Source: Bacteroidia bacterium (GTDB lineage Bacteria > Bacteroidota > Bacteroidia > Palsa-965). From it: DNA of 64,000 nt. The position numbers and the translations under genes were made by a program. Positions 3,852 to 64,000 of this stretch are shown in pieces (position 1 is the stretch's first letter; every line of letters starts with the position of its first letter). Location: contig JALONL010000006.1 in assembly GCA_025454955.1 (NCBI GenBank), positions 284,198 through 348,197 on the forward strand, written 5' to 3'. Below the pieces are notes generated by a model. That model made no database searches and was not told the DNA's origin. It saw only the letters and a list, made by a program, of their open reading frames with translations.

Positions 3852-5429
3852 TTACCACGTTACATAAATCACTTTTTCGCTCCACGGATAGCGTATAATT
3901 GAAATCGGCCAGGGCACTTTATCAATGAGCACATCAAACGAATCGCGTTCAATGAGCAGTTCCCAGCCATCGTGCCCGGGCTGTAAACGCCCTTTATGTT
4001 GGAGAAACATTTTCCGGAATGAAGGTACGGTAGATCGTTTCAGCAATTCCCAGGTTTGAATGGCGTGTTGCACGGCTTTATCGGCTTCGGCCACAAATTC
4101 CATAAAGCGGCTATGTTCAAACTGATGCCATGCAGGCAGCGGTGTTTCGGGAGAAAGCCCTACTAAGATTTTATTAAGCAATAGCTGATGCTCGTCGAAC
4201 GGATGCGGGGCTTCTTCTTCCTGTTCGCTGAGGTTTATTTCTTCGGGGTTGCCCCAGACAAGAAGTTGCAGCAGCACGGCTGCCTCGGCCTGCGCCTGTT
4301 CACTCACAAATTTTTTATTTTCAATATGCCCGGTGCGCGCCAGAAATGTGCTGATGAATGGATAAAGCAGTACTAATCCTGCGTTTTCAATTACATAACC
4401 GTCTTCATCGGGAATGAGTGGTGTTTCGGTTTCGGGCTTTACCGGTTTATAGGGTTCATCGGTTTGCTGCGCGTCAGGCCGTTTGGCCTGTAATTCCGCA
4501 TCAGTTTGCCGGATGAGTTGAATAAGCTCCTGCCATTGTGCAGCAGATAACTGAGCCGGGGAAACACCGTTTTCTTTTGCAGCGGCTGCAGTAATTTCAT
4601 TTTCAGAAAACCCATGTGCAGCCGCAATTTCAAGAAGCCGCGCAAAGGGTTTCGAATACGAAGGCGCGGGGATGGTTTCAATTTCCCTGCGCAGTATGTA
4701 AAGCACACCTGCCGGTGAAATTTCCGGCTCACGGCTTTTTACAAAAAGCACGGTGGCTGCAAACTCTGCCGCAGCATAAGCACTGCCTTCGCTGCGGAGG
4801 TAACTGCCAAGCAGTTTCACGAAATGGCGAAGGCCGCTATCGGTAAACAGTTGCAGAAAAAACTCCTCTTTGAGTTGCAAAGCCAGCCTGAGAAATCCGT
4901 TGTATTGCTTTTGTACGGCAAGTTCACGCAGCAATTGGGTCATGGCTTCCTTACCAGCCAGTTGACTCACAAGTTCCTGCAAACTCTGTTTCACGGCCGA
5001 GCGCCAGGGCAGCAAACCGCTCACCAGCAAATGCCATATTATTTCCTGTGTGCTGTAAATCCTGCTTTTGAGATGTACGGCAATTTCAATACTGTTGCCT
5101 TGTTCATCGGTATCATAAAGAACCACTTCCCTGCCCGCCTCTTCGCGCGCCTGCTGTACAAGTCGCTCCAACTGGCTTGCAAGAACAGTTTTAAACTGTG
5201 TGGCAAAAGTTTCGCTGAAATTCGATACTGTAAAACGCCCGGCATCAATCACTAACCTGTCGATGGTAAGAAACTCATCAGGCCCCACAAATTCATCGAG
5301 TACAGCCGAAACAGACCGGATAATTTCGTCCTTTCTATCCCGCAGCACTTCATCCTGAATAGTAATTCCCTGTTGCTGGTCGGGCACCTGCAACTCGATT
5401 TCAAAACGACGAATAATGTGATTGTTCAT
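3852..5429 (-). CDS. Hypothetical protein (525 aa) with no recognisable domain and an acidic central linker
   Basis: A long ORF with coding-like composition and no convincing overlapping alternative. An AT-rich putative promoter region lies upstream at 5430-5690. Confidence 0.5.
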   Translation of the reverse strand: MNNHIIRRFEIELQVPDQQQGITIQDEVLRDRKDEIIRSVSAVLDEFVGPDEFLTIDRLVIDAGRFTVSNFSETFATQFKTVLASQLERLVQQAREEAGREVVLYDTDEQGNSIEIAVHLKSRIYSTQEIIWHLLVSGLLPWRSAVKQSLQELVSQLAGKEAMTQLLRELAVQKQYNGFLRLALQLKEEFFLQLFTDSGLRHFVKLLGSYLRSEGSAYAAAEFAATVLFVKSREPEISPAGVLYILRREIETIPAPSYSKPFARLLEIAAAHGFSENEITAAAAKENGVSPAQLSAAQWQELIQLIRQTDAELQAKRPDAQQTDEPYKPVKPETETPLIPDEDGYVIENAGLVLLYPFISTFLARTGHIENKKFVSEQAQAEAAVLLQLLVWGNPEEINLSEQEEEAPHPFDEHQLLLNKILVGLSPETPLPAWHQFEHSRFMEFVAEADKAVQHAIQTWELLKRSTVPSFRKMFLQHKGRLQPGHDGWELLIERDSFDVLIDKVPWPISIIRYPWSEKVIYVTW

Positions 5430-50800: not shown

Positions 50801-52770
50801 GAGCATTGCTGCAATTAAAAACATTGTCGATAAGCCTTCTGCTTCGTTCAGAAACTATGGCCGCAAAACTGCCCAAAGCATTGCAGGCAGCCAAATTGGT
50901 TTACATGCCGCTGAAAATTGGCGAATACGCCACCGAAGGCACAAGACTATTTATCATTACTGCCGATGCTGCCGAACAAATTACTCAGATCATAAATGCT
51001 CCGGGCGACGATGAAGCCAAAAAGCGGGCATTGGTTACACTACTCTCGCAAATGGCACTTTCGTTGAGCATGTACGTGCTCGACGTGAAAGACTATGGCG
51101 ATGAAGTAAACTTAGTGCGTAATGCCGGAAAAAAATCAGGAGCAACCACACATTCACCACATACCGAACCTGATATAAATATTAAGATAAATGAACTATC
51201 CGGCAATGAAAATGTGGGCAAATCGGTAGTGGAGGCGGCTGGCGAAACTCAGGAAGAAATTCTCGGCGGTGACTCCGAAACACCAGTCACTACGGCACAA
51301 CAACGTGTGACGTATGGAAAGGACGAAAAGGGTTTTTACCGTACCAATCTCGACCAGCCTCACATACAACAACGTATAACCGAAGCCGAGTTCTACAACG
51401 CACGGGTAAGCATTGCCAATGCGCAGGTCAAAAAAACAGGCAAAATCGAAAACCCCGCCAAGGTTTCGGTCGATGCGTTGTTGCTGCTTGTGGCCTTTGC
51501 CGATCTGCAAATACAAGCCGTGAATTATCCGGCAGGCATTCTCGCCGGTGTGTCCACCGCCACGCTGTTGCTCCGCAAAGGTATGCGGGGCATGATTGGC
51601 AAACTCAAAGCAAAGAACCCCGGCATCAGCGACAAAGAATTATTGGATGAACTTAAAAAGACGATTCACAGCGATGGGGAACTAAACCGTTCGTTGAAGG
51701 AAAAGAATTTTAACTCTATTGATGAGGTGGATTTTGAAATGCCCGATGGCTCGAAGAAAAAGTTTGACGAGATAGCGCAGGAAGAAATTGACCATTCAAA
51801 ATTGCCCGACGAGGAGCGTAAGAAGATTGAGGCCGAACAGGAGGCAGAGCTAAAACCTGAGCAAAAGGAAAAGATCACCACGGAGGACGAAACGGTAAAG
51901 CCGAAAGAGGAAACACCTGAGATAAAACCGGAAATTACGTCTAAGAAAAAGATTGAGTACTGGGCAGAGGATCAGCTAACGCATGTACCCGGCAACCCGG
52001 AGTACCTGAAAATTATGCTTAATGGCGATCCGAAGCAGATTATTACGCTCAAGCGGGAGAAGGATAAGGATTGGATTGTACAGAGAGGAACGAAAGAAGC
52101 GAACGATAATAATAAGTTGACGAATGAAGAGATTTTGGAGAGAGTGCCGGAGAAGTATCGTAAAAAAAGTGAGACAATAAATCCGAATGAGGATGTAACA
52201 CAGAATACCTCCAATGAGGTTGAGAATAAAAAATCTGAAATACAAAAAGACAATTCAGAAAAATTAACATCTAAAAAGGCTGAGACCGGTGAACCTCCTT
52301 TTGCAAAGAGGAAAACAATATTGAAAGTTGGAGAGCCAATACTTAATGGTAAAATAAACCGGGTGCGTGCTGGCGATGAGAAGAAAATTGTTATTATCGG
52401 ATTAGATATGAACGGGCATGTAATTCCAATTGCCAAAGAATTACAAAGTCAGGGATTTGACGTGGAAATTTTAGAGGATAATTTTCTAAATGGTCGTACA
52501 TTTGAAATTGATGGTAAACAATGGACAGTTACCGAGGCTTTTAATGATATGGTTGAAAATGATAAATACGATGGCATGAGAGGGTTAGATAATAAAATTT
52601 TGCCAGAGTTTTTAGATCAAATACCAATGTATAAGCTAAACGAACAATGGATAACAGAACATAAAACGTCTGGAAAAACGATTCTTGATGTTGGAGGGCC
52701 TGCTAACTCAAATAAAACAAGCACCTTCTATAATATGGAAATTAACTCAATAAATTGGAACACGCAATGA
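47893..52770 (+). CDS. Giant polymorphic-toxin-like protein (1625 aa): N-terminal DUF4157 zincin-like domain, long central region with TM helices, K/E-rich disordered linker, variable C-terminal (toxin) domain
   Basis: Residues ~150-215 (coordinates ~48340-48540) read RGEMESKMNGDFGDVRVHTGADAAEMSAEINARAFTHGKDVYLGSGESVEDKELMAHELVHTI. This matches the DUF4157 consensus (fG.DFs.VRvH.d..A...a..l.ArAfT.G.diyf........LlAHEL.Hv). Hydrophobic helices lie at ~50580-50740 (ILGYIALGLGFVGLSIATFGAALPAKIAVLGTVVSYASIITGAL). A ~147-aa charged linker, repeated twice more downstream, precedes a unique C-terminal ~190 aa. Confidence 0.8.
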   Translation: MSHRRNLYSYHDDDYFKTPQQRASEAANKAQADAEMDFEYNTWPRLQQKMDAGLTLTKYELYDTRMFGGPLHRTKTFAYVRAQQNAEKLSVAAADSAEEKQADAVANAVATGGEVQTTSTASGKTESSSLTVSPEFEEKLLAGKGQGEPLNSALRGEMESKMNGDFGDVRVHTGADAAEMSAEINARAFTHGKDVYLGSGESVEDKELMAHELVHTITPGNIIKRKGINDPLNYGLHPEVKPNFLKGKTLLMDADGDGYQELELVLYLDKDKVLQLQVHHLDSDVWTNRQHFQSDKEALVVLNFQTLGAAHKTSKFTPNDTELNTNYINQFKLYDEVDPDKKSYQLNFGADVNFRQNGQYHAALGPHKITFTVNPSKIKKRSEDISFTETRKAEALSGPIYTFQAGQQGDEIELQIQQDFEAAIPQEMIAQNRTSAYSIYGYMKRLNGKIVRWTEPVMVYAVNNQMPASLNPVYQDEKLIELGISGSFLPDITIHYYTLSEKNKFYHNRKIQLHFSGPALFGGKDFRSFILVNNFPVANSNFRGEDDYHSLLDYEAPAMLNNQGKPLSVEEDIAKTEAILLQLMQRLVLDGSMNEMVFLSWKEYLLSRTVLEVVKNAKVNSEEEKAQRNSIIFNAAMKADAFAYQLMRETKAYGYVLSNSYPSKTIIVGNWSKEEKEFEELHALLDNYVLNIASRNTGNTPPDYIHDITSSPSAQPYSVQYRLPTEEEFTAYEKSKKQETDSIRTNLRNEAKAEGLNEAQQHDKLVGSYSHFATYRNQLKEIEKKQYLQKINAVFYGTTPEHINQFNTSSSTNAVAVPLPIWVYVENNEWHIVDLINPQQPFKAAVPYYSENGSNPPEALFEQLNHEKHLPKGYIYYQIGDQKKVVITQGEQTQWYDILGYIALGLGFVGLSIATFGAALPAKIAVLGTVVSYASIITGALSTAGDMWDSYKHGQLTDQTLMLNMLDLAGALLQLKTLSISLLLRSETMAAKLPKALQAAKLVYMPLKIGEYATEGTRLFIITADAAEQITQIINAPGDDEAKKRALVTLLSQMALSLSMYVLDVKDYGDEVNLVRNAGKKSGATTHSPHTEPDINIKINELSGNENVGKSVVEAAGETQEEILGGDSETPVTTAQQRVTYGKDEKGFYRTNLDQPHIQQRITEAEFYNARVSIANAQVKKTGKIENPAKVSVDALLLLVAFADLQIQAVNYPAGILAGVSTATLLLRKGMRGMIGKLKAKNPGISDKELLDELKKTIHSDGELNRSLKEKNFNSIDEVDFEMPDGSKKKFDEIAQEEIDHSKLPDEERKKIEAEQEAELKPEQKEKITTEDETVKPKEETPEIKPEITSKKKIEYWAEDQLTHVPGNPEYLKIMLNGDPKQIITLKREKDKDWIVQRGTKEANDNNKLTNEEILERVPEKYRKKSETINPNEDVTQNTSNEVENKKSEIQKDNSEKLTSKKAETGEPPFAKRKTILKVGEPILNGKINRVRAGDEKKIVIIGLDMNGHVIPIAKELQSQGFDVEILEDNFLNGRTFEIDGKQWTVTEAFNDMVENDKYDGMRGLDNKILPEFLDQIPMYKLNEQWITEHKTSGKTILDVGGPANSNKTSTFYNMEINSINWNTQ
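51717..52157 (+). repeat. Copy 1 of a ~440-bp direct repeat (encodes the K/E-rich pre-toxin linker) inside the giant gene
   Basis: TCTATTGATGAGGTGGATTTTGAAATGCCCGATGGCTCGAAGAAAAAGTTTGACGAGATAGCGCAGGAAGAAATTGACC... is near-identical to 53377-53820 and 54648-55095. Confidence 0.85.
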
Positions 52771-53270
52771 ATTCAGAAATCGTAAATTTAGCAAATAGAA
52801 TACAGATAAAAGTATTAAATCATTTCTCGTCAGTAATTGCAAATTTTGCTATAGAGATTGATGTTAAATACAGTGAGGAAAAAAACCTTCACATAATTAA
52901 CGATTCATTTAGACAAAGTAACTTTAGAATGGATATCTTCTTTCGAAGACCAAGTGCCAATAAAGTACTTCTCTTTACTTTTTATGATGGATATAATGGG
53001 AATAAGGAATTATCATATAAAATTGATTTTAAAATCTCGTCGCCGGGCAATAAACGTAACATCTATTCAGCAAAAGTACTATTTAAGCATTTGAATATTC
53101 CATACAGTTTCAATAATTTTTTTCTCCAACAAGGGGTAGATAATTTGTTTCTTCAAACTGATATTTTCTTAAAAAATATTGACGAATTGCTTGCTCTGCC
53201 AGAAATACAAACAATACTTTACACTGATGCTTGGATAGATATTCCGATAGATATGAGTGAGTACAAATAA
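52755..53270 (+). CDS. Putative cognate immunity protein of the resident C-terminal toxin domain (171 aa)
   Basis: Its start ATG overlaps the stop of the giant gene (CGCAATGAATTC, ATGA overlap). It is AT-rich, has no signal peptide and sits in the typical position of an immunity gene. Confidence 0.5.
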   Translation: MEHAMNSEIVNLANRIQIKVLNHFSSVIANFAIEIDVKYSEEKNLHIINDSFRQSNFRMDIFFRRPSANKVLLFTFYDGYNGNKELSYKIDFKISSPGNKRNIYSAKVLFKHLNIPYSFNNFFLQQGVDNLFLQTDIFLKNIDELLALPEIQTILYTDAWIDIPIDMSEYK

Positions 53271-53337
53271 TGGATAGGAATTTACATGTGAAGTCTCCCC
53301 GGAAACAGATAAATCTGAAAAATCAATTCACGATGAT

Positions 53338-54342
53338 GTGGAGTTAACCAAATCACTGCAAGAAAAAGGATTGACTTCTATTGACGATGTAGAGTTTGAA
53401 ATGCCCGATGGCTCGAAGAAAAAGTTTGACGAGATAGCGCAGGAAGAAATTGACCATTCAAAATTGCCCGACGAGGAGCGCAGGAAGATTGAAGCAGAAC
53501 AGGAGGAAGAGCTAAAACCAGAGCAAAACGAAAAGGCCACCACGGAGGACGAAACGGTAAAGCCGAAAGAGGAAACACCTGAGATAAAACCGGAAATTAC
53601 GTCTGAGAAAAGGATTGAGTACTGGGCAGAGGATCAGCTAACGCATGAACCCGGTAACCCGGAGTACCTGAAAATTATGCTTAATGGTGATCCGAAACAG
53701 ATTATTACGCTCAAGCGGGAGAAGGATAAGGATTGGATTGTACAGAGAGGAACGAAAGAAGCGAACGATAATAATAAGTTGACGAATGAGGAGATTTTGG
53801 AAAGGGTGCCGGAGAGGTATAGGAATAAATATCAGCCTAATGAAGTTAAATATAAAGATGGATGGACAAAGGAAAGAGTTCTTTCAAAGCCCAAAGGAGA
53901 GAGAGAGGTCCCTGAAATTTATTTATCAAATGATTACATTGAGAACCACTTGAGTATTTTTGAAAAAGAAGGCATTGTTTCTAGGATTGTTCTAAAGACA
54001 GCATATGATAAATATGGAATTGGTAAGCCGGATAAAGGGAAAACAGAGTTTGTCAGCTTGAAATCAGATATAGATAAACTCATTTCGGATTCAAATGGTG
54101 ACATCGAAATCTTATCAAGTGTACTTGGTGTCAGTAAAGAACAATTATCGGGTGGATTAGTACGTGTAGATTTTTATTTAAATTCACAGAATAAAGTTCA
54201 CATGCCATCAGGCAACGAGTTTGGTACAAATAGCCAATGGATTCCCGGTGGGAAATTGCCAACTGGGCAGCTTGAAGCAATCATTAAAACTGAAGGACTG
54301 ATTGTGAACGTAGATTACATTGTAAAAGACATAACATGGTAA
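53338..54342 (+). CDS. Orphan toxin cassette 2: linker repeat copy 2 fused to a different C-terminal domain (~175 aa); lacks the DUF4157/TM N-terminal part
   Basis: Residues ~14-160 are about 95% identical to the linker of the giant protein (SIDDVEFEMPDGSKKKFDEIAQEEIDHSKLPDEER...ILERVPERYR). The sequence then diverges completely (NKYQPNEVKYKDGW...IVNVDYIVKDITW). Confidence 0.6.
   Translation: MELTKSLQEKGLTSIDDVEFEMPDGSKKKFDEIAQEEIDHSKLPDEERRKIEAEQEEELKPEQNEKATTEDETVKPKEETPEIKPEITSEKRIEYWAEDQLTHEPGNPEYLKIMLNGDPKQIITLKREKDKDWIVQRGTKEANDNNKLTNEEILERVPERYRNKYQPNEVKYKDGWTKERVLSKPKGEREVPEIYLSNDYIENHLSIFEKEGIVSRIVLKTAYDKYGIGKPDKGKTEFVSLKSDIDKLISDSNGDIEILSSVLGVSKEQLSGGLVRVDFYLNSQNKVHMPSGNEFGTNSQWIPGGKLPTGQLEAIIKTEGLIVNVDYIVKDITW
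53377..53820 (+). repeat. Copy 2 of the ~440-bp direct repeat
   Basis: Near-identical nucleotide sequence to 51717-52157. Confidence 0.85.
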
Positions 54343-54569
54343 CAGAAATTTATTGTAAACCCTGGGATTTTACCTTATACCAAGTAAATAATGACTTGGT
54401 AATTAGTGTGGTTTTTTTTGGCTTAGTGGACTATCATAGAAGTTTTAGGATTGAAACTGGTACAGTTGATACCAGTAACTATGAATCCTTAGGAATTCTA
54501 TCTGAAAAAATTCGAAGAGCACCTGATGAGTACTCTGAGTCAGAAGTTAAACCAGCTATATTTTTTTAA
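54336..54569 (+). CDS. Small putative immunity protein for cassette 2 (77 aa)
   Basis: Its start overlaps the cassette-2 stop (CATGGTAA). It has a hydrophobic segment (LVISVVFFGLV). Confidence 0.35.
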   Translation: MVTEIYCKPWDFTLYQVNNDLVISVVFFGLVDYHRSFRIETGTVDTSNYESLGILSEKIRRAPDEYSESEVKPAIFF

Positions 54570-54639
54570 TGATTTTCGATTAATTGAAAAGAAATTTGAT
54601 TAATCGGATTTTTGATTCTATTTTCCTTTAATGAAAGGG

Positions 54640-55531
54640 CTCCACTTCTATTGACGATGTAGAGTTTGAAATGCCCGATGGTTCAAAGAAAAAGTTTGAC
54701 GAGATAGCGCAGGAAGAAATTGACCATTCAAAATTGCCCGACGAGGAACGTAAGAAGATTGAGGCTGAACAGGAAGCAGCGCTAAAACCTGAGCAAAAGT
54801 AAAAGACCACCACGGAGGACGAAACGGTAAAGCCGAAAGAGGAAACACCTGAGATAAAACCGGAAATTACGTCTGAGAAAAAGATTGAGTACTGGGCAGA
54901 GGATCAGCTTACGTATGAACCCGGCAACCCGGAGTACTTGAAAATTATGCTCAATGGTGATCCGAAACAGATTATTACGCTCAAGCGGGAAAAGGATAAG
55001 GATTGGATTGTAGAGTCAGGAACGAAAGAAGCGAACGATAATAATAAGTTGAAGGATGATGAGATTTTGGAGAAGGTGCCGGAGAAGTATAAAAGTAAAA
55101 AAAATGGGAATGAGTGGAAAAGCGTCCAGAAAATCAAGAATAAATACCCAGATGAAAAAATGCCTTCTGATGGTGTACTATATGGAATAGCTGAAATTAA
55201 AGACGGGCTAATCCAGTCTATTGGAAATAAGGGTAATAATTTTAATGAAATTGATTTTGTCGTAACAACAAAAGGCGAACTCATAATTGGGAAAAAACAT
55301 CATTTCCTAGGGAATGCCTTGGAAGTAGAAGCCGCTGGAACACTAAAAATTGTAAATGGGAAAGTCAAAAAAATAACAAACGCTTCAGGACATTATTTAC
55401 CATCTGTTGAAGAAACTCTTAACTTTGAAGCTGTATTCAAAAACTTAGGAATCAATACCACTAATACAGCATTAGAGATATATTATATCGACGGAAACAA
55501 ATTAAAATCAACTACAAAATTTTTGAAGTAA
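54640..55531 (+). pseudogene. Orphan toxin cassette 3: linker repeat copy 3 with an in-frame nonsense codon (TAA at 54799-54801, GAA in copies 1/2) fused to a third distinct C-terminal domain
   Basis: In GAGCAAAAG TAA AAGACCACCACGGAGGAC the third codon is GAA in the other copies (EQKEKITTED becomes EQK*KTTTED). The distal ORF 54938..55531 encodes the remainder plus a unique C-terminal domain (…GKKHHFLGNALEVEAAGTLKIVNGKVKKITNASGHYLP…). Confidence 0.6.
54648..55095 (+). repeat. Copy 3 of the ~440-bp direct repeat (slightly more diverged)
   Basis: It shares the TCTATTGACGATGTAGAGTTTGAAATGCCCGATGG... start and aligns to copies 1 and 2 throughout. Confidence 0.8.
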
Positions 55532-56046
55532 TGGAATACACAGAGTTAATTAATACTATTCATAAAGCAGATTTCAATATCAACAAGCATAATCTTTCAG
55601 CAATTGATATTGATAAAATTTGTGCTGTGCCTGATAAATTTGACTTTATGAAATCTCTTTTTGAAAATTTCGACTCCCGATTTTGCGAAGGATTACTGTT
55701 AACCTGTCCTTGTTTATGGACAAATTTCACTCTTAAAGATTGGGAAAAAATTATAGTTTCTATATCTCCAAGGGTTAAATTAAATGACAACATTACTTTT
55801 CATATAAATAATAATTCAGGATACGCAGATGTGATATTCATAAGACGATACTTCAATATAGACATCGAAAATTTAATTGAGAAATTACCTCAAATGCTTA
55901 GCGATGATAAGAAAAAAATAAGAGACTTTATTTCATTTTATGATGAAAAAATTTGCAAAAATAAAAATGAGATTACCGAAGACCTCAATGACTTCTACAA
56001 TATTTCGTTTGAGGAGTTAAGTGACTATGTAGCTCACATGAAATAA
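55531..56046 (+). CDS. Putative immunity protein for cassette 3 (171 aa)
   Basis: Its start overlaps the cassette-3 stop (GAAGTAATGG, TAATG overlap). It is cysteine-containing and AT-rich, with no signal peptide. Confidence 0.45.
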   Translation: MEYTELINTIHKADFNINKHNLSAIDIDKICAVPDKFDFMKSLFENFDSRFCEGLLLTCPCLWTNFTLKDWEKIIVSISPRVKLNDNITFHINNNSGYADVIFIRRYFNIDIENLIEKLPQMLSDDKKKIRDFISFYDEKICKNKNEITEDLNDFYNISFEELSDYVAHMK

Positions 56047-56070
56047 GATTTTAATTTATAATTCGACTTC

Positions 56071-56307
56071 ATGAATATTTCATTTGAAATAATATCGAAA
56101 GGCAGTTTGTTAGTTCATTACCATAACAAAACTGCTCTTATCAGCGGAGAACTTGTTTTTTCCCCGCCAGTATTTTATGCCGATCTATCTTCTTTAATTT
56201 ATTGGCAGCCTCCATATGAAATGGATGCAATATCTCAAAGCGAAAAAAGCGATATAATTTCGTTTTTAATAAGTCAAAATACAGGAACAAAAATTGTGTT
56301 TGATTAA
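56071..56307 (+). CDS. Small hypothetical protein (78 aa), candidate orphan immunity gene
   Basis: ORF in the AT-rich immunity island; no recognisable domain. Confidence 0.3.
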   Translation: MNISFEIISKGSLLVHYHNKTALISGELVFSPPVFYADLSSLIYWQPPYEMDAISQSEKSDIISFLISQNTGTKIVFD

Positions 56308-56401
56308 TAGTAATTGAGAAATTTTGATCGGAAAGTCTGGGGGTGAGTTGTAAATTTTCCTATAGTATCAGTTCGGTGAAAGTTAGTAGTTTTGAGCGTA
56401 G

Positions 56402-56935
56402 TTGTTTTTTGAAAGATTTCAATCTGATGCTCAAACAAAGATAAATATGCAAAACATAGACATAAAAGTAAATGAATGTCAATCAACACTAACCTCAGTT
56501 TTTACTAAAAACGAGGATAATTTTTCACATCATTGGAACATAAAAATTGAGGCTGGTCCCCATTCATTTTACTTAGAATTTTTGCAATTAGAAAACTCGC
56601 AGTCTATTTTTGATCTTTCGAATAAGTCATTTAGAATTAGCGATACAGATTTATTACAGTTGCAGTCCTGTTTCATCAATGATTCGGGGATTAAGATTGC
56701 GAATCAAATTCAAATTTCATTTGATGAATTTGATAGTGAAATAAGAAAAATCCATTCAAAAGTAAAGCTGAATTTTAATTCATATATCGTGAGTGTAGAA
56801 ACAGATATGTTATTTGCTGGATATAATTTTTATGAGGTTCCCGAAATCAATATAGAAAGGATTATTATCGAAAAAAAATTAGGTGAAATTAGAGTTCAAG
56901 ATATTGGCATTAATAATAGGCTATATAATTACTAA
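56402..56935 (+). CDS. Hypothetical protein (about 165 aa; likely start MQNIDIK at 56447), candidate orphan immunity gene
   Basis: ORF in the AT-rich island; no recognisable domain. Confidence 0.35.
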   Translation: MFFERFQSDAQTKINMQNIDIKVNECQSTLTSVFTKNEDNFSHHWNIKIEAGPHSFYLEFLQLENSQSIFDLSNKSFRISDTDLLQLQSCFINDSGIKIANQIQISFDEFDSEIRKIHSKVKLNFNSYIVSVETDMLFAGYNFYEVPEINIERIIIEKKLGEIRVQDIGINNRLYNY

Positions 56936-57042
56936 AATCCCCAACATTTCCTCAATGCTTTTCCTCACTTAAAATATTTATAATTCGACAACTATTGAAT
57001 AGATGAAGCCCAAAACAATCATTACATTTTATACTCAATAAT

Positions 57043-57489
57043 ATGAAATGTTTAACAATACTAAACAATCAAGAATCCAAGGTACAGCCAAGTGATATTG
57101 ACTACTTTGAAGAAAGGTATAAGATCAAAATTCCCGAAAAACTGAAAGACTTTTTTTTGTTATTTGGGGGCTCTAGAATCAAAGAGATGTATTATCATAG
57201 AGGTGAATCTTTGGATCAAGTTTGTGATATACTTTTAGTTAAGTCAATACAAGGAAAACCATCATGTGAGTCGATATATCAGGGACACCTATCTTATGGA
57301 GATATTGGCTTTATTCCATTTGCAATTGACTCCGGCGGCTGGGATTACAACGTATCTATAAACCCTGACACCTACGGCCAAGTTTGGGTTGATAAATTCG
57401 ACAGCGGCGAAGAAACCCCTTTTGAGTTTGTATGTAATTCCTTTGAAGAATTTATTGATGGGCTTACTGAGCAAGAAAAGGACTTTTAA
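57043..57489 (+). CDS. SMI1/KNR4 (SUKH-1 superfamily) immunity protein
   Basis: A 148-aa ORF. IDYFEERYKIKIPEKLKDFF...GG, IPFAIDSGGWDYNV and the C-terminal FVCNSFEEFIDGL fit the SUKH fold pattern. That pattern has an N-terminal ligand-binding helix, a central GG and [ILV]PFA.D..G..[FY] strands, and a C-terminal F..FL motif. Confidence 0.7.
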   Translation: MKCLTILNNQESKVQPSDIDYFEERYKIKIPEKLKDFFLLFGGSRIKEMYYHRGESLDQVCDILLVKSIQGKPSCESIYQGHLSYGDIGFIPFAIDSGGWDYNVSINPDTYGQVWVDKFDSGEETPFEFVCNSFEEFIDGLTEQEKDF

Positions 57490-58052: not shown

Positions 58053-59093
58053 ATGCGGCTGTTGGGTGCAAGGGGGGGCAACGAGCGGCACACAAAAATG
58101 GTTATTTTTGGCGAAATACAAACACTTGATCGTTATACTGTTTATTTTGTGAAGATATACTCCCAAATCGCCGATTTTGTTCCCCCTCGTTTTCCTGTAG
58201 TTACCACCGGCACTTTCGACGGGGTACACCACGGGCACCGGCAAATTATTGACCGGCTCCGGGAAACGGCCCGCAAAAACGGCGGCGAAACCGTGCTGCT
58301 TACCTTTTTTCCCCACCCCCGCATGGTACTTTTTCCCGATCAGCAGCAGCTTTTGCTCAATACGCCCGAGGAAAAAAAGCAGCTTCTCGAAAAAGCCGGT
58401 ATCGACCACCTTGTTGTTCATCCGTTTACCCGTGAGTTTTCGATGCTTTCCTCCAAAGAATTCATCGAACAAATACTGGTAAACAAATTCAATACCAAAA
58501 AGCTGGTTATCGGCTACGACCACCATTTTGGCCGCAACCGCGAGGGCAGTTTCGATCATTTGCGCGAGTTTGGCCCGGTTTATGGCTTTGAAGTGGAAGA
58601 AATACCGGCCCAGGAAGTGGACAACGAAAAAGTAAGCTCAACCCGCATACGCAACGCCCTGCAAACCGGCGATGTACGCACCGCCGCCGCCTGGCTCGGA
58701 TACCGCTACCCCCTGAGCGGCACCGTGGTAAAGGGAAGACAGCTCGGACGCACCATCGGATTCCCCACGGCCAACCTTGTGCCCGACAATACGTATAAAA
58801 TAATTCCTGCCGATGGCGTGTATGCCGTTTTTGTGCAGCGCGGAAACGATACACTGCCCGGCATGATGAATATAGGTATGCGCCCCACCATTGACCAGGG
58901 CCTGAGCCGTACCATAGAAGTACACCTGCCCGGTTTCAGCGGCGATTTGTATGGCGAAACCCTGAAAGTGCTGTTTGTGGAACGCCTGCGCGACGAACAA
59001 AAGTTCGGTTCGATTGACTTATTAAAGGAACAACTTCATACCGACCGCCTCCGGGCCACGACCCTGCTGAGTAATGAAAAAACTGATCTTTAA
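58053..59093 (+). CDS. ribF: Bifunctional riboflavin kinase / FMN adenylyltransferase
   Basis: VVTTGTFDGVHHGHRQII (nucleotidyltransferase HxGH motif) and the C-terminal riboflavin kinase region (GTVVKGRQLGRTIGFPTANL…, …MRPT…). The true start is probably ~58100-58150. Confidence 0.9.
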   Translation: MRLLGARGGNERHTKMVIFGEIQTLDRYTVYFVKIYSQIADFVPPRFPVVTTGTFDGVHHGHRQIIDRLRETARKNGGETVLLTFFPHPRMVLFPDQQQLLLNTPEEKKQLLEKAGIDHLVVHPFTREFSMLSSKEFIEQILVNKFNTKKLVIGYDHHFGRNREGSFDHLREFGPVYGFEVEEIPAQEVDNEKVSSTRIRNALQTGDVRTAAAWLGYRYPLSGTVVKGRQLGRTIGFPTANLVPDNTYKIIPADGVYAVFVQRGNDTLPGMMNIGMRPTIDQGLSRTIEVHLPGFSGDLYGETLKVLFVERLRDEQKFGSIDLLKEQLHTDRLRATTLLSNEKTDL

Positions 59094-59691
59094 CATATTG
59101 CTCGCCCTGCTGCTGCCCTTAGCCGCAGGCGCACAGCAAACCGCCCCCGCCCTGCTCGACTCGCTCACGCTCGACACCATGCCCGCGTTTACGAGTCTGG
59201 CCGAAGCCCTCAAACAGCCCGATAAAGTGGTAAAACTCGTGCTGCGCAAACAAAAGCTCGACAGCTTCCCCCAAGCCATTTTCCAGTTTAAAAACCTCCA
59301 GTACCTCGACCTGAGCCGAAACAATATCCACGAAATTCCCGACTCCATCGGTACACTCAAAAACCTGCAGGTGCTGCAGCTTTCGCGTAATAAAATAGAA
59401 TACATACCCCGCACCATTGGCGATTTAAGCCAGCTGCGCATATTAAACATCAACCAGAACGAACTTTATGTGATTCCGCCCCAGATCGGGAAACTGAAAA
59501 AGCTTGAAGTGCTCGATTTATGGAGCAACAATATCACGGTTTTCCCCGACGAGCTTAAAGACATCAGCGGAAACCTCAAAGTGCTCGACCTCCGCACCAT
59601 TCTCATCAACCGCGAAACACAGGACCGGGTAAAGGCCATGCTGCCCCATACGAAGGTATATTTTTCGCCTCCTTGCAAGTGCAATGGCTGA
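59074..59691 (+). CDS. Secreted leucine-rich-repeat (LRR) protein
   Basis: A signal peptide followed by ~6 tandem 23-aa LRRs (LQYLDLSRNNIHEIPDSIGTLKNLQVLQLSRNKIEYIPRTIGDLSQLRILNINQNEL…). Confidence 0.8.
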   Translation: MKKLIFNILLALLLPLAAGAQQTAPALLDSLTLDTMPAFTSLAEALKQPDKVVKLVLRKQKLDSFPQAIFQFKNLQYLDLSRNNIHEIPDSIGTLKNLQVLQLSRNKIEYIPRTIGDLSQLRILNINQNELYVIPPQIGKLKKLEVLDLWSNNITVFPDELKDISGNLKVLDLRTILINRETQDRVKAMLPHTKVYFSPPCKCNG

Positions 59692-61367: not shown

Positions 61368-61604
61368 ATGAAACTCGACATCATTACACCCGATAAAAAG
61401 CTGTACAGCGGCGAAGTGAAATCGGTAGTACTGCCCGGCAGCGAAGGTTCGTTCGGCATTTTGAACAACCATGCCGCCATGATTTCGACGCTCATCAAAG
61501 GCCGCATCAAGGTAACGGACGCCAACCAGTCCACACAAACTTTCGAAATTAACGGAGGTGTGGTGGAAGTGTTTCGCAACACCATTACCGTGCTGGCCGA
61601 ATAA
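61368..61604 (+). CDS. atpC: F0F1 ATP synthase subunit epsilon
   Basis: A 78-aa ORF directly after atpD. MKLDIITPDKKLYSGEVKSVVLPGSEGSFGIL.NHA is typical of the epsilon N-terminal beta-sandwich. Confidence 0.85.
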   Translation: MKLDIITPDKKLYSGEVKSVVLPGSEGSFGILNNHAAMISTLIKGRIKVTDANQSTQTFEINGGVVEVFRNTITVLAE

Positions 61605-61634
61605 GCGAAGGTGATTCCTTCATTTGTTGTTGTC

Positions 61635-62345
61635 AAAACACAAACCGCTCCCTCCTTCGACAGGCTCAGGGAGCGGTTTTTGTTTTGTGATAAGCATTGA
61701 AAGTAAATACAAACCGTTCCCTTCGACAAGCTCAGGGAGCGGTTTGCATTTTACCCGCGGAGCGGTTTGTTTTAGTGTGAAAGAAGTGTACGAATATATT
61801 TTTCCGGAAATTCCAAAACCACATTTCAAACAATAATGCCAAAACCCGTTCCCTGAGCTTGTCGAAGGGCGGGTTTTGTTTTTGATTGTGATAATACAAA
61901 CCGTTCCCTTCGACAAGCTCAGGGAGCGGTTTGCATTTTACCCGCGGAGCGGTTTGTATTCTGAACAGTTTGCATTTTACTCAGGGAACAGTTTGCTTTC
62001 GTATGAATACCGTGAGTAAAATTTTTATCCCAAAAATCACAACGAGGTTACAAAACCCGGCCCCTGAGCTTGTCGAAGGGCCGGGTTGCATTTTACACAG
62101 TGAACAGTTTGCATTTATGTGAAAACAGTGAGTAAAATTTTCATCCAAGAAAAACGAGATTACAAAACCCGGCCCCTGAGCTTGTCGAAGGGCCGGGATT
62201 TGTATTCGTATAAATACAGTAAGTAAAATTTAATCCAAGAAATCACAACAAGGTTATAAAACCCGCCCCCTAAGCCTGTCGAAGGGGCCAAATAATAACA
62301 ATAATCCTTCACGAAAAAATCCCCGTCCCCCTGAGCGGAGCCGAA
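61635..62345. repeat. Array of at least 9 short hairpin/palindromic repeats (REP/BIME-like) in both orientations, with a ~100-bp higher-order unit repeated 3 times
   Basis: The core CCGTTCCCTTCGACAAGCTCAGGGAGCGG (or its complement CCGGCCCCTGAGCTTGTCGAAGGGCCGG) recurs at about 61645, 61716, 61845, 61895, 62058, 62160 and 62262, plus degenerate copies at 61753, 61935 and 62312. The unit GTGAGTAAAATTTT.ATCC.AG.AA.ACA.GGTTACAAAACCCGGCCCCTGAGCTTGTCGAAGGGCCGG recurs at about 62012, 62128 and 62218. Confidence 0.8.
61638..61690 (+). terminator. Rho-independent terminator after atpC (first element of the hairpin-repeat array)
   Basis: AAACCGCTCCCT-CCTTCGACAGGCTC-AGGGAGCGGTTT followed by TTGTTTTG. 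Confidence 0.6.
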
Positions 62346-62372
62346 GGGGGGGGGGACGTAACTACAAAAGAA

Positions 62373-64000
62373 TTATTCCACCGCAAAACGATGCGTTTCA
62401 TTAATTCCATTTCCGGAAATACTCAGCAGATATACTCCCGAAGTAATTTCGGAGGGCAACTGTATCTGTTGCAATGATTCGCCTGAAGCAAGCATGAGTT
62501 GCTGGTTAAGCACTTCGCGGCCGAGCATATCGGTAATGCGGATTTCGATCTGCTGTTCGGCGGGCGAGTTGAGTTTTAACTGCAGCACGGGCGAACTGAG
62601 CGACACCGGATTGGGATAAAGCGAGGTGTTTACCGATGTTTCGGCATCGTTGCCGGTACTGGCCTGGCGGGCGTTGCTGCCACCGAATACCGTTTGCGCA
62701 AAGCAAAGCTGTGTCATAAATGCCTGCTGCGGTGTGCTGAGTGCCAGTGAAGTACTTGATACACTTCCGATGGCCACATACGTCGGAAACTTCTGCGAAA
62801 CCTGATAACGCTGGGTAACAGGCGTATCCTTGTTTACGTTGCAGGCGGTAACTCCGTTGTAATAGGCTTTCACGAAATACTCATCGCCGAGGTCGAAACC
62901 GAAACTGTAATTGCGGTTACCAAATACGGTAAATCCATCGGCATTGGTATTGCTGAAACTCGACAACTCGGCTGAATATTCGAGATCGGATGTGCCATAC
63001 GTCCATTCGGTAAGTCCGTTGCCAAGATCATCGAGCCATGTAACCACCATATCCTGATTGCCGAAGAAACCGGCATCGGGAGTGGATGAAAGGTAGTAGG
63101 TCCAGCGTCCGCTGGTGGTTTGACGCTGAATAATGTCGGAGGCAATGCTTTCGTTGCCACCCGAATATTTATAATTGTTTGCCCAGCGAACAACCGTTCC
63201 GGTAGGATCAATTTTCATGGCAAAGGGCTGGCGCGAGCCATACGCCACGTTATGTCCGGCAAGTACAAAACCGTTTCCGCCTCCGCTGGTGCCTGTGGCC
63301 ACGGTTACGGCTACGCAGTTATCTTCCTTGCCGCTGTCGTAAAGGTTTACGGTGCCTACGGGATTGCCATTCACCGTATTCAGACGATAGCTGAACACGA
63401 AGTTATCGCCCATATCGTCGTAAAGATCACCAACTACCATTACTTCATTCACCAAAGCGGGCTGGTAGGGAGAAGCAACCACATCGGTGGGAAGGAATTT
63501 GTAGGCAGTGGAGAATACGGGAGGATTGAAATCGTAGATGCGTCCCCAGATCAGCGCATTGGTGCTTCCGTTTATGGCCATGGTAAGTGCACGCGCGCCG
63601 TTGTTGAGTGTGGTGGCATCGGAAAAGCCGCTGATGTAAATGATGTTGCTGGTAACGGGCAGCGCATTGCAGGCCGAGGTAGCCCACATCACGCTGCTTA
63701 CCGCTGGTGTTACCGTTTGCCAGCCCACCACATTGATAATGGCACCACCCGGATTGAGCACCGCCGTAAAAATACCCGAAGGCACATTGGCCACTGAGGA
63801 GTAGTAATTGCCTACCACGCAGATACGGCCGTTGGGAATCTGCAATATTTTTACCGGTACGGCATTTAGCACTACGTTGGCGGTGGTTGACAGGCGATAT
63901 ACCTGGTTAAATGAGTTGAGCCCGACAATGTTTCCATTTACATCGGTGCGGGTAAGGAGCAGATCATTGTTACCGAGCACGGTGGTGCTGCCGGCAATTA
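62373..64000 (-). CDS. Secreted protein with C-terminal T9SS type-A sorting domain (partial; probably extends beyond the window)
   Basis: The C-terminal ~80 aa (SLYPNPVSLSSPVLQLKLNSPAEQQIEIRITDMLGREVLNQQL...ITSGVYLLSISGNGINETHRFAVE) fit the Por_Secre_tail consensus (LYPNP..., G.Y.L, K). The upstream repeat-rich beta-like sequence runs to the window end. Confidence 0.7.
   Translation of the reverse strand, partial: IAGSTTVLGNNDLLLTRTDVNGNIVGLNSFNQVYRLSTTANVVLNAVPVKILQIPNGRICVVGNYYSSVANVPSGIFTAVLNPGGAIINVVGWQTVTPAVSSVMWATSACNALPVTSNIIYISGFSDATTLNNGARALTMAINGSTNALIWGRIYDFNPPVFSTAYKFLPTDVVASPYQPALVNEVMVVGDLYDDMGDNFVFSYRLNTVNGNPVGTVNLYDSGKEDNCVAVTVATGTSGGGNGFVLAGHNVAYGSRQPFAMKIDPTGTVVRWANNYKYSGGNESIASDIIQRQTTSGRWTYYLSSTPDAGFFGNQDMVVTWLDDLGNGLTEWTYGTSDLEYSAELSSFSNTNADGFTVFGNRNYSFGFDLGDEYFVKAYYNGVTACNVNKDTPVTQRYQVSQKFPTYVAIGSVSSTSLALSTPQQAFMTQLCFAQTVFGGSNARQASTGNDAETSVNTSLYPNPVSLSSPVLQLKLNSPAEQQIEIRITDMLGREVLNQQLMLASGESLQQIQLPSEITSGVYLLSISGNGINETHRFAVE

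Follow-up and report, generated by a model that had tools for sequence, protein, structure and literature searches.

A probable REP/BIME-like cluster of terminator-form hairpins between atpC and a convergent T9SS-tail gene in a Bacteroidia bacterium, and the recurrence of its core across phyla

In the window, by which we mean the whole 64-kb stretch of Bacteroidia DNA analysed here, atpD and atpC lie on the forward strand and a convergent gene with a Por_Secre_tail domain lies on the reverse strand (assignments by Pfam), and the 768-bp spacer between atpC and this T9SS-tail gene (61605-62372) contains an array of eight hairpins. To define its extent, we searched the 64-kb window with the core query CCTGAGCTTGTCGAAGG, allowing up to three mismatches and taking the expectation from 100 shuffles, and obtained seven matches, all within 61654-62285, against 0.11 expected, with none of the 100 shuffles reaching seven. 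The eighth hairpin, H8, lies outside these core matches and carries the variant loop GAGCGGAGCCGAA. Six hairpins are canonical, with the core CCTGAGC(T/C)TGTCGAAGG, and H7 and H8 are degenerate. The forward strand reads TTCGAC(A/G)(A/G)GCTCA in H1, H2 and H4 and the reverse complement in H3 and H5-H8 (three versus five), which gives the order A A B A B B B B along the array. H3 and H4 form an inverted doublet, 10 nt apart (40-nt arms, 83%), and four orphan 3'-arm fragments are interspersed among the hairpins. A first-pass annotation of this DNA had reported at least nine palindromes in both orientations with degenerate variants; the array, its two orientations and its variants are real, and the count resolves into eight hairpins plus the four orphan fragments. 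All coordinates are collected in Table 1.

Table 1. Genes, hairpins and duplicated segments in and around the atpC spacer (window numbering; paired energies in kcal/mol)
Feature	Position	Strand	Sequence or core	Other details
atpC (ATP synthase epsilon, 78 aa)	61368-61604	+		Pfam ATP-synt_DE_N, E=1e-25; upstream of the array
H1	61634-61687		TTCGACAGGCTCA on +; core 61654-61670, 1 mismatch	20-nt arms, 95% complementary
68-nt segment (H2 + orphan arm)	61706-61773	+		duplicated at 61893-61960, 99% identity, spacing 187
H2	61711-61745		AAACCGTTCCC-TTCGACAAGCTCA-GGGAGCGGTTT; exact core on -, 61720-61736	-20.7 / -18.8 kcal/mol
Orphan 3'-arm fragment	61754-61769	+	CCCGCGGAGCGGTTTG	second copy 61941-61956
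H3	61841-61877		exact core on +, 61852-61868	-18.1 / -16.0 kcal/mol; 7/10 T on +
H4	61898-61932		exact core on -, 61907-61923	duplicate of H2
Tandem composite unit	61970-62197	+	spacer TTTGCATT..GTGAGTAAAATTTT.ATCC..ACAA.GGTTACAAA plus hairpin	
Related orphan 3'-arm fragments	about 61980-61996 and 62097-62112			from repeat search
H5	62054-62087		AACCCGGCCCC-TGAGCTTGTCGAA-GGGCCGGGTT; exact core on +, 62063-62079	-22.2 / -23.4 kcal/mol
H6	62166-62198		exact core on +, 62175-62191	copy of H5; -19.6 / -21.4 kcal/mol
H7	62260-62289		CCTAAGCCTGTCGAAGG, 2 mismatches	decayed copy, right arm lost; -8.5 / -11.5 kcal/mol; z = -0.8
H8	62321-62358		variant hairpin CGTCCCCC-TGAGCGGAGCCGAA-G10-ACG	-19.4 kcal/mol on -; 7/10 T after stem
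T9SS C-terminal sorting-domain protein gene	62373-64000, past window end	-		Pfam Por_Secre_tail; 588 aa in source contig

The wider neighbourhood was annotated alongside. After the array, three tandem paralogues of about 580-600 aa with Por_Secre_tail domains follow one another (source contig segment 11006-16925, starting at window position 62373), and their number ranges from one to three across congeners. Directly upstream of atpD lies a 205-aa leucine-rich-repeat ORF (59074-59691) whose start precedes the end of ribF (FAD synthetase/riboflavin kinase) by about 20 nt, an arrangement of ribF, leucine-rich-repeat ORF and atpD that is kept in all congeners. Farther upstream of ribF and atpDC, at about 51368-57489, the end of a 1,625-aa eCIS_core-domain protein is followed by several small ORFs with no Pfam match and then by an SMI1_KNR4/SUKH_6 immunity-like ORF (57043-57489). 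This region looks like a polymorphic toxin and immunity cassette, and the equivalent region of one congener holds an Imm74 ORF.

Folding each unit as RNA, as the first-pass annotation had suggested, gave predicted energies of -16 to -24 kcal/mol on both strands for seven of the hairpins, which are 30-54 nt long, the exception being the decayed H7. H1 folded at -22.0 kcal/mol on the forward and -23.6 kcal/mol on the reverse strand, with a 12-bp stem and seven T among the ten nucleotides downstream on the forward strand. The hairpins are flanked by A-rich sequence on the 5' side and T-rich sequence on the 3' side, on both strands, because of which the units look like intrinsic terminators from both directions. 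H1 on the forward and H8 on the reverse strand are the hairpins nearest the two stop codons, and each is followed by seven T in ten after the stem, so that both have, in form, the G+C stem and U-tract directly after a gene that mark an intrinsic terminator; some inner hairpins have a weak T-tail on one strand (three or four T of ten). The array hairpins were not picked up by a consensus terminator scan, because their loops exceed its 8-nt limit. We consider it most likely that H1 is the terminator of atpC, bidirectional in form, that H8 is the terminator of the convergent gene and that the inner copies are redundant duplicates. The view that the first copy acts as the atpC terminator thus holds in form, given a 12-bp stem within a 20-nt, 95% palindrome and seven T in ten. 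The 3' arm of H8 is a G10 homopolymer (62346-62355), met soon after the stop codon of the T9SS-tail gene, and the 5' arm opposite has just five C in a row; this slippage-prone tract inside the putative H8 terminator could modulate read-through.

We then compared the units with one another. Tandem Repeats Finder reported a 116-nt unit in 2.0 copies at 61970-62197 (score 349, 87% matches), and alignment resolved four "spacer + hairpin" units, of which the first is diverged (61746-61877) and the last truncated (62199-62289), so that the tandem unit is about 95-140 nt long and present roughly four times. An earlier estimate of a unit of about 100 bp repeated three times was therefore close in length and short in number. 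In-place growth of the array by segmental and tandem duplication is shown by its sequence and by the congener loci described below, and template switching between inverted copies probably contributed as well. The window and the adjoining 7.6 kb (72 kb in all) yielded no further copy of the core, even at five mismatches, so that this stretch gives no support to the genome-wide repeat family suggested in the first-pass annotation.

For comparison, nine syntenic congener contigs were found via AtpC homologues, with atpDC at 87-91% nucleotide identity to the window and the order ribF, leucine-rich-repeat ORF, atpD, atpC followed by convergent T9SS-tail genes. Five of the nine contigs have a spacer of 83-84 bp with one plain terminator, and two have a spacer of about 160 bp, again with one plain terminator. 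In another, the 165-bp spacer holds two hairpins that resemble palindromised halves of the motif, and its first terminator has the stem of H1 with a different loop. The hairpins in these spacers of 83-165 bp all lack the core. In the remaining spacer, of 382 bp, a plain terminator precedes an array in which the same hairpins are put together differently: six (three of them degenerate) point the way of H1 and H2, and one points the other way. The window's 116-nt unit spacer is absent from all nine contigs, and the congeners' 8-kb loci hold no core outside the atpC spacer. Because the congener spacers differ in length and build and lack the 116-nt spacer, the atpC cluster is, by this comparison, young, lineage-specific and hypervariable, and the large differences in array length and build fit the suggestion, made in the first-pass annotation, of a recombination hotspot. 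In GCA_020402865.1, the two hairpins after atpC (locus 4260-4360) are the perfect palindromes CCCTTCA-ACC-TGAAGGG and CCCTGA-AATAAGC-TCAGGG, each corresponding to one motif half, and the outer stem of the first is that of H1; their form suggests an origin by template switching between inverted motif copies.

The window belongs to a 365-kb JGI metagenome contig (3300037462, Ga0392395_0000017). A contig of 4868 bp from a second sample is identical to the window until its assembly breaks inside the repeats, and in other samples the assemblies of short contigs with AtpC homologues stop inside or beside the array. The locus is an assembly breakpoint, and array lengths taken from short-read MAGs may be unreliable.

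The core recurs far beyond this genus. We found the exact 17-mer core in at least 120 IMG/VR stretches, some of these matches being short coding coincidences, compared with three and one for the reversed and block-permuted controls. The 33-nt consensus was present in 71 plasmids or chromids of alpha-, beta- and gammaproteobacteria, and one 1-Mb Sphingobium replicon alone carried up to 22 consensus sites, nearly all in unannotated DNA. A version with 22 specified bases, CCGNNCCCTGAGCTTGTCGAAGGG, matched at least 120 stretches of species-representative genomes from at least 13 phyla, as assigned from the record titles: Actinomycetota, Chloroflexota, Bacteroidota, Acidobacteriota, Desulfobacterota, Latescibacterota, Binatota, Planctomycetota, Gemmatimonadota, Calditrichota, Spirochaetota, Pseudomonadota and Campylobacterota. 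The A-flanked, Bacteroidota-style version was found in at least 120 metagenome stretches, the matches listed coming from unrelated organisms. The core was absent from 5,426 complete E. coli genomes, and isolate phages yielded nothing beyond short coding coincidences. Family members occur as single hairpins, as inverted doublets that form long hairpins of about 80 nt (for example downstream of htpG in Sphingobium) and as tandem arrays with lineage-specific periods, which in Plantibacter are 45, 83 and about 120-140 nt. We also observed micro-arrays of half-motifs, CCGGTCCCTGAGC with a period of about 18-20 in Microbacteriaceae and GAGCTTGTCGAAGG with a period of 15; the arrays and micro-arrays come from four Plantibacter, four Microbacteriaceae and three other loci, and some are found 25-40 nt ahead of start codons. 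Within phage-like head modules, different contigs have the motif at different intergenic positions, which suggests insertion.

Across 638 distinct instances, the positions 2-7 (CTGAGC) and 10-16 (GTCGAAG) are near-invariant, with T or C at position 8. At the two closing positions, 97.5-98.9% of instances are paired, and the pairs covary (CG 583, GC 33 and AT 14 for the closing pair; CG 508, TA 65, TG 32 and GC 14 for the next), and farther out, pairing in strict register falls to 40-56%. An unpaired CC is conserved 5-6 nt upstream, giving the flank consensus CC-NNNN-CCTGAGC. The family can therefore be written as C-CTGAGC(T/C)TGTCGAAG-G, in which the stems vary and covary and a centre of about 13-17 nt is fixed. 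With respect to genes, motif sites lie between convergent genes in 64 cases versus 29 between divergent ones, and no orientation bias relative to transcription was detected in homology-supported operons (32:32) or between co-directional ORFs (64:48). A convergent excess without orientation bias fits a strand-symmetric role at gene ends. Outside A/T-flanked, Bacteroidota-like genomes, copies usually have no T-run, and because most of these copies lack one, termination is not the defining function of the family; nor does termination explain the invariant centre of about 15 nt.

The two strands of the motif differ in a further respect. On the CCTGAGC..CGAAGG strand, both facing GA steps stand in a 5'-pyrimidine-GA-purine-3' context, and the complementary strand would have pyrimidine-pyrimidine mismatches at these positions. 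A pyrimidine-GA-purine context favours tandem sheared G.A pairs, which would give a strand-specific shape. In the viral set (IMG/VR), the CCTGAGC..CGAAGG strand was on the C-rich strand in 78 of 111 loci (78:33, p = 2e-5), a skew that may reflect contig redundancy; the genome and metagenome sets showed no such bias of this strand.

Our main reading, to which we assign a probability of roughly 0.6, is that the atpC spacer carries bidirectional terminator hairpins that were amplified locally into a REP/BIME-like cluster between two convergent genes. Each unit would consist of an A-tract, a G+C stem, the invariant centre and a T-tract, and would thereby take the form of a bidirectional intrinsic terminator. 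H1 would end the atpDC transcript and H8 that of the convergent gene, and the inner copies may serve as back-up terminators and 3'-end protectors that separate the two transcription units. Its growth in place is evident from the tandem duplication of the "spacer + hairpin" unit of about 116 nt, from a segmental duplication at a 187-nt offset and from the orphan half-arms, with template switching between inverted copies as a probable further contributor. The likeness to BIME/REP elements proposed in the first-pass annotation is borne out by the layout of the cluster and by inverted doublets such as H3-H4. Locally, the feature is ordinary: a hypervariable group of repeats and terminators that follows an operon both essential and highly expressed. 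It can serve as a strain marker, and it causes assembly breaks.

Other accounts of the array were weighed against this reading. An active, non-autonomous REPIN- or MITE-like element could be moved in trans by a RAYT-like HUH/Y1 transposase, with the array as an insertion hotspot, and such an element would be in keeping with inverted doublets both here (H3-H4) and in many genomes, with the variable intergenic spots of the motif inside conserved portal-protease-capsid modules, with its patchy presence among congeners and with many copies in Plantibacter and Sphingobium and none in E. coli. However, all-against-all clustering of the ORFs within 3 kb of 240 motif loci revealed no recurrent neighbouring enzyme, and a crude HUH...Y regex over the six frames of the window detected no Y1 transposase signature. 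The clusters that did emerge, which we rejected as partner-gene candidates, comprised only phage head-module genes, response regulators and GFO/IDH/MocA oxidoreductases. In addition, the GTAG and CGTC tags are absent, no other copy lies within 72 kb, and the sharing of spacers among units speaks for whole-segment duplication rather than separate insertions, which makes mobilisation of this kind unlikely at the locus. That an ordinary terminator was merely duplicated in tandem at this locus, and belongs to no wider family, agrees with that same isolation within 72 kb and with the clear segmental duplications, but we judge it highly improbable: the 17-22-nt core turns up in unrelated genomes, plasmids and viral contigs by the hundred, greatly exceeding the controls, and one congener has built an array of this core independently and on a different plan. 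Duplication of a terminator at this one locus, which the first-pass annotation had named as what would undo its wider view, accordingly describes the array, which is a local duplication, and fails for the core, which is a cross-phylum motif.

A cluster of small RNA genes, in which each unit of about 116 nt would be an independent transcript ending at its hairpin, is very unlikely in our estimation, even though every unit does end in a terminator-like hairpin and the nearest Rfam model, RF02901, is an experimentally detected sRNA. No Rfam gathering score was reached anywhere in the window or in 18 motif-rich loci; a permissive scan returned RF02901 at 52.4 and 42.1 bits, well below the 97 bits needed for membership, the rest being miRNA or long-hairpin noise, and a Sphingobium copy scored 37 bits against the same threshold. 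The RF02901 match arises because of the shared hairpin doublet only. A sigma-70 promoter scan is not applicable to Bacteroidota; of the promoter of this phylum (-7 TAnnTTTG, -33 TTTG), no -7 motif was found on either strand of 61600-62380, compared with 44 in the window, so that the array shows no promoter of its own for an sRNA gene. With the -7 motif missing, the unit spacer absent from the congeners and no Rfam family assigned, the first-pass suggestion of a regulatory RNA cluster was not upheld. The five ORFs in the array (50-98 aa) have no Pfam match. It is also conceivable, but quite unlikely, that the hairpins are sites for a DNA- or RNA-binding factor that reads the 15-nt centre, so that the cluster would shape supercoiling or RNA decay at an operon with high expression, by analogy with the binding of gyrase or IHF at BIMEs. 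The near-invariant centre with variable stems, the conserved unpaired CC upstream, the half-motif micro-arrays of Microbacteriaceae with their period of about 18-20 nt and the strand-specific shape that the GA steps could give would all suit such a factor. Against it, the genes directly downstream of the motif belong to no common family and share no regulon, and the absence of the motif from E. coli means that the partner cannot be a universal housekeeping protein; we know of no candidate factor that binds the hairpin centre.

The preferred reading of a locally amplified terminator cluster leaves the fixed centre to be accounted for. A fixed centre with varying stems implies a widely distributed, sequence-specific partner or a mobilisation mechanism. 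Candidates are a protein that binds nucleic acid and a mobilising enzyme whose substrate would be a strand-specific single-stranded DNA hairpin containing tandem G.A pairs. We tentatively consider it possible, though on balance somewhat improbable, that C-CTGAGC(T/C)TGTCGAAG-G defines a family of short structured repeats that spans phyla, is under functional constraint and has so far gone undescribed, in which case the atpC array would be one locally amplified instance. Searches of the running text of 8 million papers returned nothing relevant on the core, its variants or the encoded peptides, and the motif is likewise absent from the main text of the REP surveys consulted. A centre that is fixed across Actinomycetota, Bacteroidota and Pseudomonadota is unlike lineage-specific REPs that co-evolve with their own transposase, and it suggests a conserved recognition event, as yet unnamed. 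If real, the family would offer a direct handle on the spread and function of short palindromic repeats, and it might account for many spurious "hypothetical proteins", a large class, that are in fact translations of these repeats, among whose peptides are presumably PELVEG, LSLSKG and FDKLR.

Among known systems, CRISPR can be set aside, as the first-pass annotation had already held: the repeats occur in both orientations, the "spacers" are themselves repeated, and the best score of CRISPR direct-repeat models was 21 bits against a threshold of 37. The consensus of RF02901 (AaHKsRNA41, Aggregatibacter sRNA 41) includes GCUGAgCUUGcCGAAGC as an inverted pair; this sequence is the array's core with its outer pair changed by covariation, but no other part of the 187-nt model can be aligned to the array, and the model describes an sRNA of a single genus, not the hairpin family. 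MITEs with terminator-like hairpins, such as Correia/NEMIS in Neisseria and RPE in Rickettsia, are similar as small, structured, co-transcribable repeats at gene ends; they differ in that no element-bounding terminal inverted repeats or target-site duplications were recognised in the array, whose units were duplicated together with their flanks. REPINs (RAYT/TnpA_REP) share with the family the inverted hairpin doublets, of which H3-H4 is one of many, and the patchy copy number and taxonomy, but the 5' GT[AG]G guide is lacking and no RAYT-like gene was seen within 3 kb of the 240 loci or, with the HUH...Y regex, in the window. Each RAYT pairs with its own REP sequence of the GTAG type (PMC6006769), whereas here one hairpin sequence spans many phyla.

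The array resembles in layout the REP/BIME elements (PU-BIME) of Enterobacteria, in which short, imperfect palindromes likewise face either way and form clusters whose inter-repeat segments are conserved. Its eight hairpins, of 30-54 nt, are imperfect stem-loop palindromes of the kind that defines REPs (20-40 bp), and their alternating orientation and repeated spacers reproduce the BIME architecture. REPs lie mostly between convergent or co-directional genes and have been proposed to act in termination and in protection of mRNA 3' ends (PMC3733652). Known REPs are species- or genus-specific and have an unpaired GTAG (GT[AG]G) or CGTC tag and loops of 2-20 or 4-5 nt (PMC3733652), and the authors of the REP survey note that untagged REP families exist and are unclassified. 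The stem feet in our array read AAACCG.. or AACCCG.. and carry neither tag, the CGTC of H8 lying within its stem; the hairpin family thus differs from known REPs in having no tag, in its near-invariant centre (13 nt, compared with REP loops) and in being common to at least 13 phyla. Ordinary bidirectional intrinsic terminators between convergent genes have the same succession of A-tract, G+C stem and T-tract directly after both stop codons, from which the array is set apart by eight copies where one suffices and by an atypical, sequence-constrained loop of 11-13 nt.
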